From the NCBI GenBank assembly GCA_000092065.1, contig CP000596.1: a stretch of DNA of 64,000 nucleotides; one strand, 5' to 3'. The stretch comes from Ostreococcus lucimarinus (Eukaryota). Below, one piece after another: positions 10,103 through 16,359 of this stretch. The position numbers and the translations under genes were made by a program. Below the pieces are notes generated by a model. That model did not search any database. It was not told the origin of the DNA and saw only the letters and a list, made by a program, of their open reading frames with translations. Each line of letters starts with the position of its first letter. Positions within the stretch are counted from its first letter, which is position 1.

Positions 10103-10906
10103 ATGCGAAGCGTGGAGAACGCGCGGACGGCGTTAGACGATGGAAAGGTAGACACGGCGATAAAAATGATGAAGAGCACGGACGCGCTGTGCTCGAGGGT
10201 GGTGGCGCCGCCGACGGTGCACGGGATAGCGTTGAGGGTGCTCGCGGACGCGTACATGGAGAAGGCGGCGGGACGGACGGAGAGCGGGACGGTAGAGGCG
10301 AGCGAGAGCGGAGAGGACGCGGCGAAAGATAATGGTAAAGAAGAGGCGGAAGAGGAGTCTGATTACGTTGATTGCGCGAAGAGGACGCTGAAGAAGGCGC
10401 TCGATATTTGCAAGGTGCACGACGGGAAAGCCGGGATGCCTCGGTTTATGGTGCAGGATTTAGCCGGTCGCATGGGAGATCTCTACGCAGCGCAAGGGGA
10501 AATTTTTAGACAAGAAGGGAACTATAAAGAAGCGCTTCGCTCGCTTCGCCTGGGCATAGGAAAGTTTGAAGTGCTCGGGGCGAACGAGTTTGTCGGCGCC
10601 ACCTACAATCGCGTCGCGTACTGCTACATGGAGAAAGAGCAGTGGAAAGAGGCTCTGGAAGAGCTTCAAAACGCCGAGCGAATCGTGAACGGGGTCGAGG
10701 CCGAGTCCGCCATCTTGAGCACGACTTTCGCCTACCGAGGCGAGTGCTTAAAGAGACTCGATAAAATCCAACTCGCCCGCGCGGCGTTCGAAAGCGCTCT
10801 GAAATTCGGCATGGCGAGCGGTAACGAGGGCGTCGTCCGCGAGGCCGAAGAATTTCTAGCCCAAACCCAACAGCACAGCACCGTTGACGACTCTGCTTTC
10901 CTTTAA
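10103..10906 (+). CDS. TPR-like helical repeat protein, function unknown.
   Basis: 268-aa ORF starting at the first ATG (the track starts at a GTG at 10088). Amphipathic helical repeats with A/L/Y/G periodicity reminiscent of TPR (YNRVAYCYMEKEQWKEALEELQNAERI). Confidence 0.35.
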   Translation: MRSVENARTALDDGKVDTAIKMMKSTDALCSRVVAPPTVHGIALRVLADAYMEKAAGRTESGTVEASESGEDAAKDNGKEEAEEESDYVDCAKRTLKKALDICKVHDGKAGMPRFMVQDLAGRMGDLYAAQGEIFRQEGNYKEALRSLRLGIGKFEVLGANEFVGATYNRVAYCYMEKEQWKEALEELQNAERIVNGVEAESAILSTTFAYRGECLKRLDKIQLARAAFESALKFGMASGNEGVVREAEEFLAQTQQHSTVDDSAFL

Positions 10907-11269
10907 CGGACGGCTGGGTGATTTTTCGGCGATTAGACGTCTCCGCCGCGTCTCGGCTCATGAGCGCGTCCCGAGCGTCCAAACCTCTTCTCACTCTTCG
11001 CCGCGCGACACTTGAAATTGACATAGCAGCGCAACATTCACTCGCGCCGCCGCTCGCGCGCCCCCCCGTCGCGCTTTCGCGGCGCCGTCGACGCCAGTCC
11101 TCGACGCTCGACGCTTCGTTCCCCACTTCCCCACCGCGCACTGTTTACCCATACGACATCGCGCCCTCGAAAATCTCGACGCCGACGCGAAAAAGCGCGC
11201 GATTGATTGCATCCACGTCAGCACACGCCGGCGCGCGCGCCGCGGAGCGCCTCTCGACGCGCGCTCGAC

Positions 11270-14200
11270 ATGCGAGGCGCCGCAAAACTTCGATCCGATC
11301 GCGCCGACGTCGCGCGCCCGAGCTCGACGAGCGATCTCGCCGCGCGCGGCGCGCGACGGTCGACGAATCGCGACGATCCGAACGGCCTCGGCGCGTCGAC
11401 GACGGCGCGACGCGCGAGCGACGACGACGCGCGAGCGATGGCGCGATCGAAATCAACGCCGATCGACGCGCGACGGGAGCGAAGGATGAGCGCGGGCGCG
11501 CGAGACGCGAGGACGTGGCGAGCGTTCGCGCGGGGACGGGTGGACGGCACGGGGGTGCGGTTGAGCGCGCTGACGGTGTTGTTTTTGTCCTTCGTCGTGC
11601 TCACGGAGTGGATACGCGATCGCGAGGGAGAAAAGTTTAGCGCGTTTACGCCGAGGTTGATTCGGTCGAGACACGTGCTGGACGTGACGACCGGGGAACG
11701 GGTGATGATGACGGAGGAACGCGCGCGAGGGAGCGGATTGAACGCGGGGAACGCGAGCGGAGCGGCGGCGGCGAATTTGCGAACGTACATGGATCACGGC
11801 GTGGTGCGACTGGAGGCAGAGGTGTGTGGATCGACGTCGCTGATGGCGCTCACGGTGTTCGCGGTGTGCGCGAGCATTGGGTTGAACGATATCATGTGGA
11901 CGGCGTCGAGACAGAGGCGAAGAGTGAGTTCGACGGTTATGTACATCACGATTATCGCGTGTTACACGCACTATTTGATGGTTCAAGGGTCGGATTTGCT
12001 CATGAAGAGCATTGAAGGGACGTACTACTCGCTGTTGCGATATTTGGAGTGGATTTTCACGACGCCCGTGCTGCTGATTTTGGTGTTTCAACTTCACGCT
12101 CTCGTCGTCGGCGGAGCAAAGTCGAGATTTCGCACGGAAATGTACGCCATCTGCGTCGCGGATGAAATCATGCTCATCACCGGCATGCTGGTGAATGAAA
12201 TGAACGGCACGGTGCGAGGTATGCTTCTCACCGTGTCAATCGGTTGCTTCATGTACGTCATCACTACGTGCATTCAACTCTTTCGCGAGGTGCTCGCGAA
12301 CGAGCTCACCAAGGGCGATCGCACGAGATTTGTCATCCTCGCCATCGCCAAGACGGTGTGCTGGACGTCGTTCCCCTTGGTCTTCATGGCAAAAGAGCTG
12401 AACTACATCGATACGAGCGCCGAACACGAGTGGTTTTTGAGTTGTGACGTGTTGACCAAGGCGGCGTACTGCCTATTGCTCTCCGCCGGGAACATTCGCG
12501 TCCTCGACGCCGCTCGTGACGAAGAGATGGCTGACATCGAGCGCTTGACCAAAATGCAGCGAGATTTCTTCTTCAACATCACTCACGAATTGCGCATGCC
12601 TCTGAACTCCGTGATAGGCTTCAACACCTTGGCGGTGGAATCCGGTGAGTTGACGGATGTCGCCGACGGCTTTATCAAAAATTCCCTCACCTCAGCCGAG
12701 GCGTTGCTCGGGTTGATTAATCAAGTCCTGGACTACGCCAAGTTCAACCGCAAGGGCGCCGAAGTCGACCAGGCGCATGGGCTAGAGCTGACCAACGACG
12801 ATTTCACCATCGAAGAGCTCATAGATCAAACTTTGAGCATCTCTCAGCGTCAAGACTACACTGGAAACGTCTTCGTGCGCATCGATCCGAGCTTGTTTCG
12901 CATGACGTACAAGAGTGACTTTTTCCGTTTGCGTCAATGTCTTGTGAACGTCGTGAACAACGCGTTGAAGTTTTCCAGTAATCTCGATCGATCAGGGAAC
13001 GTCATAATCGATGTTCGCGGCTATCTCGAGGAGCAGGAGGCGCGCCTGACGTTTTCCGTCGAGGACAACGGTGTGGGCATTCCGGAAGAGAAACAGAGCG
13101 CTGTCTTCGTGCCGTTCAGCCAGCAGTCCGACTACTCCGCGCTCCGTGTGCAAGGCACCGGTCTCGGTCTTACTATCACGAAGACTATCATCGAGCTCAT
13201 GGGAGGCGTTATCGACTTCACGTCTCGAGAAGACGTCGGCACAAAGTTCAACATCACGCTTCCGCTCGGGTACAAGGCGACGGAGAAACAACACACGGCG
13301 CCGCGAGACTTGAAGGTGCTCATCGGGCTTCGCCCTGGCTTGCAAATGCGCACCGTTCGAAATATTTTAGCGTGCTATCAAGTTAACGTGCAAGATATGC
13401 TCGAAGTTGGTCTCGAAGACGCTCAGGATCGCGAACAAGTGGAGCATTACGTGCGACACTCGCACAAGGCAAACAGACCCGCGGTGTTGTGCATCGAAGA
13501 AGAGCAGTATTTCGCACACGAAAGCTGGTTGAATTCGATCGATCCCGAACCTCACATCTTGATCATATCCAAGTCTTCGAGAATGAAAGACTTGCCGCAT
13601 TCCGCGTGTAAGCGAGCCATCATGAAGCCGATAGCGATGTCAGCGTTCATCGAGACGCTCGAATACCTCGCGGCGGACGCGAAGAACGGCGAAGTCGACG
13701 AGAACGCGATGAGAACACGCGGTCTCGGAGGGAGAGACGAGAGCACTTCGAGTCTCGCTGAAAACTCTATGATGAGAAGTGAGAGAACTTCAAGTGACTC
13801 CAAACGTGCGCCCAAGTCTAGCGCAGAGCAGCCTGACATCGACATCAGCTCCATGCGCGTGCTCCTCGTCGAAGACAACAGGCTGAATCAGCAAGTGGCG
13901 ATTCACTCGATGAAAAGATGTAACGTATTCGTCGATGTCGCTGAGAATGGTTTGATCGCGACGCACAAAGTCGAAGACACCATTCGTGGGAACTCCAAAC
14001 CTTACGACGTCATTTTCATGGACATGATGATGCCCGTGATGGATGGAAACGACGCGACGAGGCGAATTCGCGAGATGGAACAAAGCGCCCCGCCTGGGTA
14101 CAAGCGTAATCTGATCGTCGCCTTGAGCGCAAACGTCGGACCCGAGCATACACTTGCGGTCACGGAAGCTGGATGTGATGGTTCACTCGGGAAACCATTC

Positions 14201-14302
14201 TACCCGAGCACGTTGCGCTCGCTTTTGTATTCCATCTTTCTCGACGAATACGAAGGCTTCGAGGGTGAGACGATGAACACGGCGTCGAGGCCCGGACACT
14301 GA
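11270..14302 (+). CDS. HKR: Histidine-kinase rhodopsin (HKR): a microbial-type rhodopsin fused to HisKA, HATPase_c and a receiver domain.
   Basis: Helix C LLRYLEWIFTTPVLLIL (compare bacteriorhodopsin RYADWLFTTPLLLLD). Helix F CWTSFPLVF (WxxYP). Helix G CDVLTKAAYCLLL, with the Schiff-base Lys codon at 12458-12460. H-box ITHELRMPLNSVIGF (His at 12584-12586). N box VNVVNNALKFS, G1 VEDNGVGIP, G2 GTGLGLTITK. Receiver LLVEDNRLNQ...YDVIFMDMMMPVMDG (Asp at 14021-14023). The track start at 11207 is a TTG; the first ATG is at 11270. Confidence 0.85.
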   Translation: MRGAAKLRSDRADVARPSSTSDLAARGARRSTNRDDPNGLGASTTARRASDDDARAMARSKSTPIDARRERRMSAGARDARTWRAFARGRVDGTGVRLSALTVLFLSFVVLTEWIRDREGEKFSAFTPRLIRSRHVLDVTTGERVMMTEERARGSGLNAGNASGAAAANLRTYMDHGVVRLEAEVCGSTSLMALTVFAVCASIGLNDIMWTASRQRRRVSSTVMYITIIACYTHYLMVQGSDLLMKSIEGTYYSLLRYLEWIFTTPVLLILVFQLHALVVGGAKSRFRTEMYAICVADEIMLITGMLVNEMNGTVRGMLLTVSIGCFMYVITTCIQLFREVLANELTKGDRTRFVILAIAKTVCWTSFPLVFMAKELNYIDTSAEHEWFLSCDVLTKAAYCLLLSAGNIRVLDAARDEEMADIERLTKMQRDFFFNITHELRMPLNSVIGFNTLAVESGELTDVADGFIKNSLTSAEALLGLINQVLDYAKFNRKGAEVDQAHGLELTNDDFTIEELIDQTLSISQRQDYTGNVFVRIDPSLFRMTYKSDFFRLRQCLVNVVNNALKFSSNLDRSGNVIIDVRGYLEEQEARLTFSVEDNGVGIPEEKQSAVFVPFSQQSDYSALRVQGTGLGLTITKTIIELMGGVIDFTSREDVGTKFNITLPLGYKATEKQHTAPRDLKVLIGLRPGLQMRTVRNILACYQVNVQDMLEVGLEDAQDREQVEHYVRHSHKANRPAVLCIEEEQYFAHESWLNSIDPEPHILIISKSSRMKDLPHSACKRAIMKPIAMSAFIETLEYLAADAKNGEVDENAMRTRGLGGRDESTSSLAENSMMRSERTSSDSKRAPKSSAEQPDIDISSMRVLLVEDNRLNQQVAIHSMKRCNVFVDVAENGLIATHKVEDTIRGNSKPYDVIFMDMMMPVMDGNDATRRIREMEQSAPPGYKRNLIVALSANVGPEHTLAVTEAGCDGSLGKPFYPSTLRSLLYSIFLDEYEGFEGETMNTASRPGH

Positions 14303-14414: not shown

Positions 14415-15296
14415 TCACGTCGCGCTTCCTTCTCGTAGGCGCTCTTCGACCGCGTCCATCGCCGCGGCGTCGAACCCCAAAATCTCGTACCACATTTTCC
14501 CATTCGCAGACTTCAAGTCTTTTTCACACTTCAAATTGACGCTCGCGCGGCGCACTGCCGCCGCCGCGATCGTCGGCGCCTCCTCTTCCCCCACGGGCTC
14601 CGCCGTCGCGAAGAGGGCATCCAACAGCGTCGCGCTCGCCGCGCACGCCAATTCCCTACTACCTCCGATCACATGTACGATGTGAAACATGTACACGTGC
14701 GGTTGCGCCGTGTTCAACTCATATTCCATCGCGCGAAGCATCTCTTGCTCCAAAACTAAGATTCGATCCTTGTACGCGTAATACAACGCCCCCGTCGCCG
14801 CGTTCATCGCGTCGCCGTCGCGCGCCGCGTTCATCGCCTCCGCACCCTCATCTCCCGCCCCACGACCCACGACCGCGTACCCAGCCAGCATTTCACCCTC
14901 CGCCCGTTCTCTCGCGTCCGCCTCGCTCAACCGCACGTCCGCGCGATCATCCAGCGCCACCGTTCCGTCCTCGCCGTCGAGCGTCGCCGCCGTCGCCGCC
15001 ACGACGTCCGCCAACCGCACCACCGACTCCTCCAGCTTACACGCCAGGTAGATCCCCGCCTGCACGACCAATTCGGGCGAGACTTTCGCGCGCTTCCGCG
15101 CCTCGTCCTCGCTCGCGCGCTCGATCGCGTCGCGCCGTTTATAAAACTTTAAAACGTTCGCCAGCGCCGTCACCGCGGTGTCGATCGGGAGGTTCAGCAG
15201 CTCGCACGCGCGCCGACACAGCGCGCGCGCCTGCGCGTTGCGACGCGCGCGACGCGCGTCGTCGCCGTCGCTCGACGCGACCGGCGCGCGGGACAT
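14415..15296 (-). CDS. Cyclin-like protein with a cyclin N-terminal fold (C/H/K/L-type).
   Basis: Cyclin-box-like ...VLKFYKRRD...VVQAGIYLACKLEESVV... (compare CLFLASKVEE of cyclins C/H/K). The track ORF runs to 15506; the internal ATG at 15294-15296 (MSRAPVASS) is the more likely start after a basic low-complexity leader. Confidence 0.5.
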   Translation of the reverse strand: MSRAPVASSDGDDARRARRNAQARALCRRACELLNLPIDTAVTALANVLKFYKRRDAIERASEDEARKRAKVSPELVVQAGIYLACKLEESVVRLADVVAATAATLDGEDGTVALDDRADVRLSEADARERAEGEMLAGYAVVGRGAGDEGAEAMNAARDGDAMNAATGALYYAYKDRILVLEQEMLRAMEYELNTAQPHVYMFHIVHVIGGSRELACAASATLLDALFATAEPVGEEEAPTIAAAAVRRASVNLKCEKDLKSANGKMWYEILGFDAAAMDAVEERLREGSAT

Positions 15297-15504
15297 GCGT
15301 CGCGGTGTGCGGAGATCAATCGACGTTCTAAATTTATGGCGCGACGTCGTCATCGCGCGACGCGACGCGTTTTCGGCGCGGTCCCGTCGCGGCCGTCGAC
15401 GCGGCGCGCGACGCGACGCGCGCGACGACGCGCGAGGCGGTTCGCGAGGACGCGCGGACGCGCGAACGCGCCGGAAACGCGTCGCGACGGTTCGTTTGAG
15501 CGTC
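15297..15504. promoter_or_regulatory. Putative bidirectional promoter between the cyclin-like gene (-) and the small GTPase-like gene (+).
   Basis: About 200 bp separate two divergent start codons. This is an inference from gene arrangement. Confidence 0.3.
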
Positions 15505-16359
15505 ATGGGGAGCGATTACGCGCGACGCGTGCGGCGCGCTCGCGCGCTCGCGCGCGATCCCACGACGGCGCGCGACGCGCTGAGGGCGTTTTGCGCGTCC
15601 GACGCGAGCGCGGTCGGCGCGGTCGCGACGTTGGCCACGGCTGGGGCGAGCGGGTGCGGGAAAACGGCGCTCGTGCGGCGATTCTTCGCCGAGTCGCGGC
15701 GTCGACGCGGATGCGCGAACGCGGACGCGAGCGAGGATCGGCGCGCGACGCGGACGATCGGGATGGATTTCGGCGTGATGTCGTGCGCGCTCGAGCGCTC
15801 GGACGGCGACGAGGACGGTGGCGAAGCGCGCGCGCCGGCGCGCGCGCGCGGACGGTTTTTCGATCCGAGCGGCGCCGCGGCGCACGCGGCGTGTCGCGCC
15901 GCGGCGTACAGACGCGCCGACGGCGTCGTCTACGTCCTCGATCAGACGCTCGGAGACGTCGACGCGCGAGCCATCGAGCGCGGGCTTCGCGAGATCGTCG
16001 ACGCGCGGCGCGGCGAGACGCGCGGCGTCGTCCGCGTGCTCTTCGCGACGCGTCGGCGCTCGGGCGTCGACCGAATCGACGCCGCGACGACCGTCGACCG
16101 TCGCGCGCGAAAGCCGAGACCGACGCCGCGAGACGATCCATTCGCGCTGCTGCGCGACGTCAAAGCCGCGTGCGCGGCGGTGCTGACGACGAATCCGCTC
16201 GACGTCGCCTTCGTCCTCGTCGAGCCGCCGCGCGGGGCGTCGCTCGCGCGCGCGCTCGATTCGCTCCGCCATCTGACCCTCGTCGAAGTCGACGCTCGCG
16301 CTGGAACCGGCGTCGTCGACGCTTTTCACGCGTTATTCGCCGTCGCGCGGCGCGAGTGA
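15505..16359 (+). CDS. Divergent Ras/Rab-like small GTPase-like protein.
   Basis: P-loop GASGCGKTALVRRF. Switch I TIGMDFGV. Switch II-like FFDPSGAAA, with Ala in place of the catalytic Gln. VVYVLDQT matches the G3 region. No canonical NKxD is present. ATG at 15505. Confidence 0.5.
   Translation: MGSDYARRVRRARALARDPTTARDALRAFCASDASAVGAVATLATAGASGCGKTALVRRFFAESRRRRGCANADASEDRRATRTIGMDFGVMSCALERSDGDEDGGEARAPARARGRFFDPSGAAAHAACRAAAYRRADGVVYVLDQTLGDVDARAIERGLREIVDARRGETRGVVRVLFATRRRSGVDRIDAATTVDRRARKPRPTPRDDPFALLRDVKAACAAVLTTNPLDVAFVLVEPPRGASLARALDSLRHLTLVEVDARAGTGVVDAFHALFAVARRE

Follow-up and report, generated by a model that had tools for sequence, protein, structure and literature searches.

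Residue and domain map of a rhodopsin-histidine kinase gene of Ostreococcus lucimarinus, the probable counterpart of Ot-HKR

Histidine kinase rhodopsins (HKRs) are, to our knowledge, the sole rhodopsin-type photoreceptors in the tiny, ecologically dominant marine picoalgae considered here, and O. tauri has two histidine kinases, an HKR and LOV-HK. For the former, Ot-HKR, the 2019 work of Luck et al. is said to have found a long-lived deprotonated state. The protein (also OtRh1) carries E181, T185, T186, L192, D314 and K318; it is retinal-binding and photoactive according to papers which cite Luck 2019, and secondary accounts describe it as a green-absorbing, green-light receptor feeding the circadian clock. 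A pathway from the histidine kinase through HPt to TOC1 has been proposed (PMC4343026, PMC12704426), and the clock model assumes a light-activated kinase (PMC4343026). Among related enzyme rhodopsins, RhoGC (E254) and RhoPDE (E164) have Glu at the position of D85 in bacteriorhodopsin (BR), and in RhoPDE this Glu carries a proton permanently, with Asp292 as the sole counterion (PMC7644710). The 2c-Cyclops are light-inhibited (PMC6284317), and the central pseudo-receiver of the hybrid kinase ShkA binds c-di-GMP (PMC7010744).

Here we surveyed an HKR gene in a window of 64,000 nucleotides of O. lucimarinus DNA (assembly GCA_000092065.1, contig CP000596.1). The plus-strand reading frame opens at TTG 11207, has its first ATG at 11270 and contains no internal stop, and four Pfam domains were found in it: Bac_rhodopsin (PF01036; residues 195-408, E 5.5e-21), HisKA (430-492, E 9.7e-10), HATPase_c (552-666, E 6.8e-25) and Response_reg (864-985, E 4.2e-14). 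All four exceed the curated cut-offs and are therefore well past chance, which bears out the initial annotation in placing rhodopsin, HisKA, HATPase_c and receiver in one ORF. The features of the locus are as follows.

10103-10906, plus strand: gene of a TPR-repeat protein, the upstream neighbour, separate from the receptor (Pfam TPR_12, E 1.1e-10)
11270-14302, plus strand: complete HKR / Rhod-HK ORF, first ATG to stop inclusive, 1010 aa, 100% identical to P0001 (a 938-aa gene model)
11270-11485, plus strand: Arg/Ala-rich N-terminal extension or 5' UTR, of uncertain coding status (SNPs, codon-position GC, low identity)
11561-11620, plus strand: TM0 transmembrane helix, residues 98-117 (hydropathy, AlphaFold2, conservation)
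11828-12487, plus strand: seven-helix microbial rhodopsin core, helices A-G, residues 187-406 (PF01036, AlphaFold2 helices, Foldseek)
12038-12082, plus strand: helix C motif RYLEWIFTTPVLLIL, residues 257-271 (BLASTP to BR)
12446-12460, plus strand: helix G DVLTK, residues 393-397 (D393 = BR D212, T396 = A215, K397 = K216)
12488-12556, plus strand: short helical linker from helix G to DHp (near-continuous helices in AlphaFold2, pLDDT 57-77)
12557-12745, plus strand: HisKA / DHp domain (H-box ITHELRMPLN; H439 phospho-acceptor, E440 kinase residue, M443 at H+4)
12923-13267, plus strand: HATPase_c catalytic domain (N-box N563/N564; G1 D599-x-G601-x-G603; G2 G629-x-G631-x-G633)
13313-13687, plus strand: probable pseudo-receiver domain, residues 682-806 (AlphaFold2 fold, Foldseek match to ShkA)
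13694-13828, plus strand: Ser/Glu-rich disordered linker, residues 809-853 (pLDDT 26-33; length differs among homologues)
13859-14224, plus strand: receiver domain (E868, D869, D918 as phospho-acceptor, S953 and K975, the full catalytic set, conserved)

The single ORF thus runs from TM0 through the 7-TM core with Lys397, the helical linker, DHp with His439 and the CA domain to a receiver-like domain that is degenerate and then, past a disordered linker, to a receiver that retains its full catalytic set, including Asp918. Cyclase and HPt domains were absent from the protein in the Pfam search, including the guanylyl cyclase that follows the receiver in 2c-Cyclops, and the protein stops 25 residues past the receiver. 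Even at E = 1, Pfam gave nothing for the first 193 residues or for the stretch 668-860. The initial annotation took this for one of few eukaryotic light-gated two-component modules, which was overstated: 47 modular algal rhodopsins are catalogued, the majority coupled to HisK-RR (PMC7693036), and our own search gave over 50 cluster representatives that share the Rhod-HK architecture. For residue comparison, 57 full-length sequences were aligned with MAFFT.

The rhodopsin core was compared with known rhodopsins by fold and with BR by sequence. In Foldseek it matched rhodopsins with TM-scores (target-normalised) of at most 0.81, and the closest solved fold was the 8-TM Rh-PDE. BLASTP was run with a BR query that had been checked as identical to PDB 1o0a_A. 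The motifs quoted earlier for helices C, F and G are all present, WTSFP lying at residues 365-369, and the alignment gives R257 = BR R82, E260 = D85, T264/T265 = T89/T90, L268 = L93 and L271 = D96 in helix C, where W261 also aligns with its BR counterpart, and W365 = W182 and P369 = P186 in helix F. The helix G lysine, K397, is intact at the position of the retinal Schiff-base lysine, and it is kept together with the retinal-pocket residues in over 50 relatives. Leu377 occupies the BR E194 position. On its predicted fold, the helix C and F motifs and this lysine, the protein would classify as a microbial (type 1) rhodopsin.

The proton donor is absent because Leu271 occupies the D96 position, and here the earlier reading stands. 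Its "Glu counterion" stands only in part. Glu is indeed found at the D85 position, and the equivalent Glu is kept in all homologues covering the site except one (P0057); the counterion chemistry does not follow, since the corresponding Glu of Rh-PDE is neutral, and the phrase is therefore a statement of position. The same annotation held that HKR1-type sensors share both the Glu and the Leu. HKR1 has only the Leu, with L124 at D96 and M113 at D85 (Table 2B, PMC7693036); Met, a non-carboxylate residue, marks the HKR1 type at the D85 position (Cop5 M113, Vop5 M157), whereas the residue here is E260. The Glu ties this protein to Ot-HKR, RhoGC and RhoPDE, not to HKR1.

The extra hydrophobic segment proposed before helix A was recovered in three ways. 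The segment VRLSALTVLFLSFVVL, residues 96-111, peaks at a Kyte-Doolittle value of 1.84; AlphaFold2 places the TM0 helix at pLDDT 86-94; and TM0 identity in Ostreococcus-like relatives is 71-82%, against 30-40% for the tail before it. The model and these data point to TM0 as the eighth helix that enzyme rhodopsins (8-TM, "type Ib") typically have. In enzyme rhodopsins such a helix would put the N-terminus in the cytosol.

TM0 lies 3' of all three candidate starts: 11270, 11438 (954 aa) and 11486 (938 aa), the latter two being alternative in-frame starts. In six metagenome contigs, the 216 bp of 11270-11485 held five SNPs, none of them at codon position 3, whereas the core held six in 2757 bp, five of them at codon position 3. 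The latter pattern shows that the core is under purifying selection; the former suggests no coding constraint on 11270-11485, and for this reason the real start may be 11438 or 11486, with 11270 merely the first ATG. GC at codon positions 1/2/3 of the extension is 0.69/0.71/0.78, which is weakly periodic, and its identity to orthologues is just 20-40%.

The candidate starts also bear on how the gene was catalogued. Numbering from 11438 gives Glu 204 / Lys 341, exactly that of OlRh1; from 11270, Glu 260 / Lys 397, that of OlRh2, with 8/8 tabulated residues agreeing; from 11486, Glu 188 / Lys 325, exactly OlRh3; and from 11705, Glu 115 / Lys 252, exactly OlRh4 (Table 2B, PMC7693036). The four O. 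lucimarinus entries OlRh1-4 appear to describe a single gene read from four different start codons. This gene is not new; it has been catalogued under those four names and is an ordinary member of an established family. Residue pattern and gene neighbourhood both place it in the Ot-HKR orthologue group (Bathycoccaceae Rhod-HK), and the gene order TPT-TPR-HKR is kept in six marine contigs. The upstream TPR gene also agrees with the published OtRh2 model ("TPR at the N-terminus").

In the kinase module, K397 and H439 are 42 residues apart, and Pfam found no PAS or HAMP domain between them. The phosphorelay residues (H-box His, N, G1 and G2 boxes, receiver set) are intact, the sole exception being Met in place of Thr/Asn at H+4; what the residues at H+1 and H+4 do in HisKA is described in PMC3510030. 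This Met is present in 14/14 Bathycoccaceae-type sequences, and the remaining relatives have Thr (43/43). The N, G1 and G2 residues of HATPase_c are conserved except N563, for which the Bathycoccus-like group and nearly all other relatives have Asp.

Between the CA domain and the true receiver, AlphaFold2 gave a (beta-alpha)5 fold for residues 682-806 at pLDDT of about 93, and the top Foldseek match of the cytoplasmic model was full-length ShkA (6qrj, 580 alignment columns). In this domain L687/R688 stand in place of the acidic pair and E743 at the phospho-Asp position, while K786 is kept. By hhalign the middle domain aligns with the true receiver in register but weakly (probability 1.9%, E 0.026), and a PDB-sequence profile search returned only sub-threshold CheY and Rossmann-2x3 matches. 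Mainly from the AlphaFold2 fold and the ShkA match, residues 682-806 are probably a conserved pseudo-receiver. In the linker that follows (809-853) the codon-position GC periodicity is absent; a hidden intron was considered there and rejected, as the ORF is unbroken and the variable linker is present in relatives too.

One speculative reading of these two features is that the Ostreococcus and Bathycoccus HKRs are "kinase-only" hybrids deficient in phosphatase activity, with a ShkA-like pseudo-receiver gating phosphotransfer by a second, non-light input. The deficiency is proposed on the ground that HisKA phosphatase activity requires Thr/Asn at H+4, where these proteins have Met. We regard this combination as doubtful; if true, the protein would be a coincidence detector. 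No earlier description of the H+4 Met or the pseudo-receiver was found for HKRs in the accessible literature, and both are small, testable leads on the shaping of kinase output.

Taken as a whole, the protein is very probably a fusion of an 8-TM enzyme rhodopsin with a hybrid histidine kinase, the Ostreococcus counterpart of Ot-HKR. All-trans retinal on Lys397 would form a protonated Schiff base that Asp393 would stabilise, either alone or together with Glu260. Blue-green light would isomerise the retinal and lead to a long-lived deprotonated signalling state; the orthologue is reported, in secondary accounts, to absorb green. Movement of helices F and G, and possibly of TM0 also, may then be relayed by the helical linker to the DHp dimer, altering autophosphorylation of His439. 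The phosphoryl group would travel from His439 to Asp918 and be taken up by a separate HPt protein, which would hand it on to response regulators such as the clock protein TOC1.

The comparison with HKR1 in the initial annotation would instead make the protein a bistable UV/blue photoswitch of the HKR1 type, in which the resting Schiff base is deprotonated. The two proteins belong to one broad family with the TT pair and the Leu at D96 in common; PMC4343026, which predates any spectroscopy, raised as a speculation that Rhod-HK might be similar to HKR1 in its blue state; and without a proton donor, a long-lived UV-absorbing deprotonated state reversible by short wavelengths is plausible. We nevertheless consider such a switch improbable, as HKR1 has Met113 rather than Glu at D85, and Ot-HKR, with the same E/TT/L/D/K set and a near-identical pocket, is reported as green-absorbing. 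The PR-105 tuning position is likewise Leu268 here, and Leu is classed as "green" at this position (Table 3, PMC7693036).

It is less probable still that the gene is decayed or non-photoreceptive, for example a kinase with a rhodopsin-like membrane anchor that does not use retinal. Met for the H+4 Thr and the unconstrained N-terminal region would fit such decay, but the ORF is intact, Lys397, the pocket and the catalytic residues of kinase and receiver are kept in more than 50 relatives, the SNP pattern of the core is that of purifying selection, and citations of Luck 2019 credit the O. tauri orthologue with retinal binding and photoactivity. A light-driven ion pump or channel with a mere kinase tail deserves almost no credence: R257, E260, T264, D393 and E385 look like elements of a proton-release pathway, but Leu271 replaces the cytoplasmic donor, the BR E194 position is Leu, and the predicted topology is that of 8-TM enzyme rhodopsins. 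The nearest solved fold to the present protein, Rh-PDE, neither pumps nor conducts. Pump or channel function was rejected on the absent donor residue and the enzyme-rhodopsin fold.

HKRs are thought to inform the TOC1/CCA1 clock of green light and, by this means, of depth and photoperiod. The sequence provides a clean reference on which key residues, TM0 and phosphorelay sites are mapped, and no new class is proposed. The published record is corrected in that four OlRh entries appear to be one gene.

Among known systems, Ot-HKR / Rhod-HK shares TM0, rhodopsin, HisKA, HATPase_c and receiver with the present protein, lacks the cyclase likewise, and has the same E/T/T/L/D/E/K at BR 85/89/90/96/212/204/216; BR position 194 is Met in O. 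tauri and Leu in O. lucimarinus. The presumed O. tauri orthologue (P0004) is about 75% identical in the rhodopsin domain, and its retinal pocket is the same save at BR T142 (I324 here, M there), W189 (F372 here, Y there) and E194. Salpingoeca Rh-PDE and fungal RhoGC have the same 8-TM plan with TM0, Glu at D85, Asp at D212 and no D96 donor, but their output is a phosphodiesterase or cyclase, coupled directly, with no His-Asp phosphorelay. The 2c-Cyclops (Cop6 / Vop6) also join an 8-TM rhodopsin to an HK and RR phosphorelay in a single polypeptide, and differ by a C-terminal guanylyl cyclase and by Q/I/N rather than E/L/D at BR 85/96/212. Chlamydomonas HKR1 (Cop5) is likewise a rhodopsin-HisK-RR fusion with T/T, Leu at D96, Asp at D212 and Lys at K216; unlike the protein here, it has Met113 at D85, works as a UV-A/blue switch and bears degenerate cyclase, SMC_N and SAM domains. 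On the cytoplasmic side, the layout of DHp, CA, pseudo-receiver and receiver is that of Caulobacter ShkA and of plant cytokinin-receptor hybrid kinases, although ShkA is soluble and lacks the rhodopsin input, and the pseudo-receivers share no detectable sequence similarity.

The histidine-kinase rhodopsin (HKR) is encoded on the + strand by an uninterrupted ORF which begins at 11207 (TTG) or at the first ATG (11270) and ends with the stop at 14302; counted from the ATG at 11270, as all residues here, the protein has 1010 aa. Four domains were found by Pfam, each exceeding its curated cut-off, and PDB sequence searches matched microbial rhodopsins, histidine kinases and receiver domains.

Pfam domains of HKR
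Residues 195-408, Bac_rhodopsin, E 5.5e-21
Residues 430-492, HisKA, E 9.7e-10
Residues 552-666, HATPase_c, E 6.8e-25
Residues 864-985, Response_reg, E 4.2e-14

By identity and architecture, HKR is with high confidence a receptor of the type of Ot-HKR, its O. tauri counterpart; its function in sensing blue-green light and the photochemical details are held less firmly. The motifs quoted in the initial annotation were all recovered in the translation where they had been placed. The rhodopsin domain was aligned to bacteriorhodopsin (BR; query identical to PDB 1o0a_A), which agreed with the reported Glu and Leu at the D85 and D96 sites, respectively, and with the retained lysine.

Aligned residues (BR/HKR)
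R82/R257, D85/E260, W86/W261, T89/T264, T90/T265, L93/L268, D96/L271, D115/D298, M118/M301, W182/W365, Y185/F368, P186/P369, W189/F372, E204/E385, D212/D393, A215/T396, K216/K397

Conservation was scored over an alignment of 56 relatives from the protein search, using the sequences which cover each site. No variation was seen among them in the Arg, the Trp, the first Thr (BR T89), D212 or K216, and only P0057, the most distant relative, departs from the Glu at the D85 site. For Ot-HKR (OtRh1) the residues E181, T185, T186, L192, D314, M298, E306 and K318 are listed (PMC7693036). One relative, P0004, has Met at the BR 194 position, same as OtRh1, and by this residue is probably the O. tauri protein; its rhodopsin domain is ~75% identical to that of HKR and its retinal pocket differs only at BR T142 (I324/M), W189 (F372/Y) and E194 (L377/M). 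Ot-HKR is called green-absorbing with salt-dependent photophysics (PMC7693036) and is described as a green-light receptor (PMC12704426, PMC4343026).

The initial annotation had stated that UV/blue sensors of HKR1 type share both the Glu at the D85 site and the Leu at the D96 site. For the Glu this was mistaken, as Chlamydomonas HKR1 (Cop5) carries Met113 where HKR has E260 (PMC7693036 Table 2B), which makes an HKR1-like UV/blue switch improbable. The Glu at this site is common to HKR, RhoGC (E254) and Rh-PDE (E164); in Rh-PDE it is always protonated and Asp292 is the sole counterion (PMC7644710).

The extra hydrophobic segment reported before helix A was borne out as a transmembrane helix (TM0) by hydropathy, structure prediction and conservation. 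It passes the hydropathy threshold, and AlphaFold2 (34-sequence alignment) predicted residues 98-117 to be helical (pLDDT 86-94), ahead of seven more helices and a BC-loop hairpin. TM0 is 71-82% identical in most Ostreococcus-like relatives and ~50% in two others (P0008, P0009), and the tail N-terminal to it is only 20-40% identical in Ostreococcus-like relatives. The closest solved structure found by Foldseek is the transmembrane domain of Salpingoeca Rh-PDE (7d7q, 7cj3), the first 8-TM rhodopsin to be crystallised, in which TM0 packs on TM2/TM3 and is required for stable retinal binding (PMC7644710). All characterised enzyme rhodopsins are reported to have an eighth helix and a cytosolic N-terminus (PMC8575461, PMC6284317).

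Four O. lucimarinus entries, OlRh1-4, are published (PMC7693036 Table 2B), and each was reproduced exactly from a different Met of this ORF.

Start codons and matching entries
11438, OlRh1, E204 ... K341
11270, OlRh2, E260 T264 T265 L271 D393 L377 E385 K397 (8/8 residues match)
11486, OlRh3, E188 ... K325
11705, OlRh4, E115 ... K252

Between species, the N-terminal tail shows indels and little conservation, so that four coinciding offsets are very specific; on these offsets OlRh1-4 appear to be a single gene entered four times, as four start-codon models, and the window would come from O. lucimarinus or a strain nearly identical to it. SNPs were counted among six marine metagenome contigs: in the core (11546-14302) five of 6 SNPs fall at codon position 3, and in 11270-11485 none of 5, at a density ~10x that of the rest of the gene and with four variable sites 3 bp apart within 10 bp (11453-11462). 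The codon-position GC periodicity of 11270-11485 is also weak, and thus the first 72 codons would be either a disordered tail free of constraint or 5′ UTR. The choice of start among 11270, 11438 and 11486 is uncertain; all three keep TM0, and the OlRh4-type model alone lacks it. The conservation and the SNP pattern speak against a relic which no longer perceives light, making it very unlikely, and a pump or channel, given the absent donor residue and the enzyme-rhodopsin fold, can practically be dismissed.

The genes flanking HKR are the following.

10103-10906, + strand, TPR-repeat gene directly upstream of HKR on the same strand
14415-15506, - strand, downstream convergent ORF of 363 aa (Cyclin_N E 0.0045, under the Pfam cut-off)

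Contigs with an exact match stem from assembled seawater metagenomes. The six marine contigs keep the order TPT transporter, TPR protein, HKR and then an unannotated opposite-strand gene, which is the weakly cyclin-like ORF of the window and is called there on the minus strand. As the TPR gene, itself beside the TPT gene, adjoins HKR in this conserved order, the published OtRh2 model with its N-terminal TPR domain (PMC7693036) is probably a fusion of two adjacent gene models. Near-identical marine contigs show 3-bp and 8-bp indel polymorphisms between TPR and HKR, at 10935 and 11119-11126. The HKR body from the rhodopsin domain onward (11830-14302) has about 53-54% GC, beside 58% in the TPR gene, 66% in the cyclin-like gene and 73% in the HKR N-terminal region; its GC3 is still high (0.66-0.76), so the lower GC stems from codon positions 1 and 2, i.e. 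from amino-acid composition.

In the kinase module, the H-box ITHELRMPLN has both H439 and E440, the acidic H+1 residue being required for kinase activity (PMC3510030). HKR also has the N, G1 and G2 boxes and, in its receiver, E868, D869, D918, S953 and K975, all conserved in the alignment of relatives. HisKA phosphatase activity requires Thr or Asn at H+4 (PMC3510030). This residue is Met443 (12596-12598) in HKR and Met in 13/13 other Ostreococcus-/Bathycoccus-type HKRs, against Thr in 43/43 other relatives; this clean clade-specific change points to reduced phosphatase activity in the clade, and the enzyme may possibly be kinase-only. Pfam found no HPt domain or cyclase in HKR, hence a separate HPt protein is needed. 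K397 and H439 are only 42 residues apart, and AlphaFold2 models this stretch as a nearly continuous helix, which suggests that helix G is coupled directly to the DHp bundle.

Blue-green light would isomerise the retinal, and the change would pass along helix G, possibly with TM0 taking part, to the DHp dimer, where it would modulate the His439 to Asp918 relay, then HPt and then clock response regulators. PMC12704426 and PMC4343026 have Ot-HKR and LOV-HK feeding a His-Asp relay to an HPt protein and TOC1. The clock model assumes light activation (PMC4343026); 2c-Cyclops is light-inhibited (PMC6284317).

The CA domain and the receiver are separated by a conserved middle domain (residues 682-806; 13313-13687) with a (beta-alpha)5 fold at pLDDT ~93 in AlphaFold2. 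Its receiver-like sequence similarity is weak, though in register: L687/R688 stand at the acidic pair, E743 at the phospho-acceptor position and K786 is retained, leaving neither acidic pair nor phospho-Asp. When the cytoplasmic model was searched with Foldseek, full-length ShkA (6qrj) came out best, with E 3e-21 over 580 alignment columns, versus E of about 1e-13 for kinase-only matches. ShkA is laid out as DHp, CA, pseudo-receiver and receiver, and its pseudo-receiver binds c-di-GMP (PMC7010744). On the model, residues 682-806 are a probable pseudo-receiver.

The literature already covers the gene, its key residues and its family, and spectroscopic work exists on the orthologue; the HKR finding is correct yet unremarkable in a Mamiellales genome. 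Minor leads not yet reported are the H+4 Met, the putative pseudo-receiver, the apparent derivation of OlRh1-4 from a single gene, and the start, which is uncertain. The middle domain and the H+4 Met go beyond published HKR domain cartoons, the former being absent from the published schemes accessible to this analysis. In its position between CA and receiver, the probable pseudo-receiver resembles that of ShkA and of plant cytokinin receptors.
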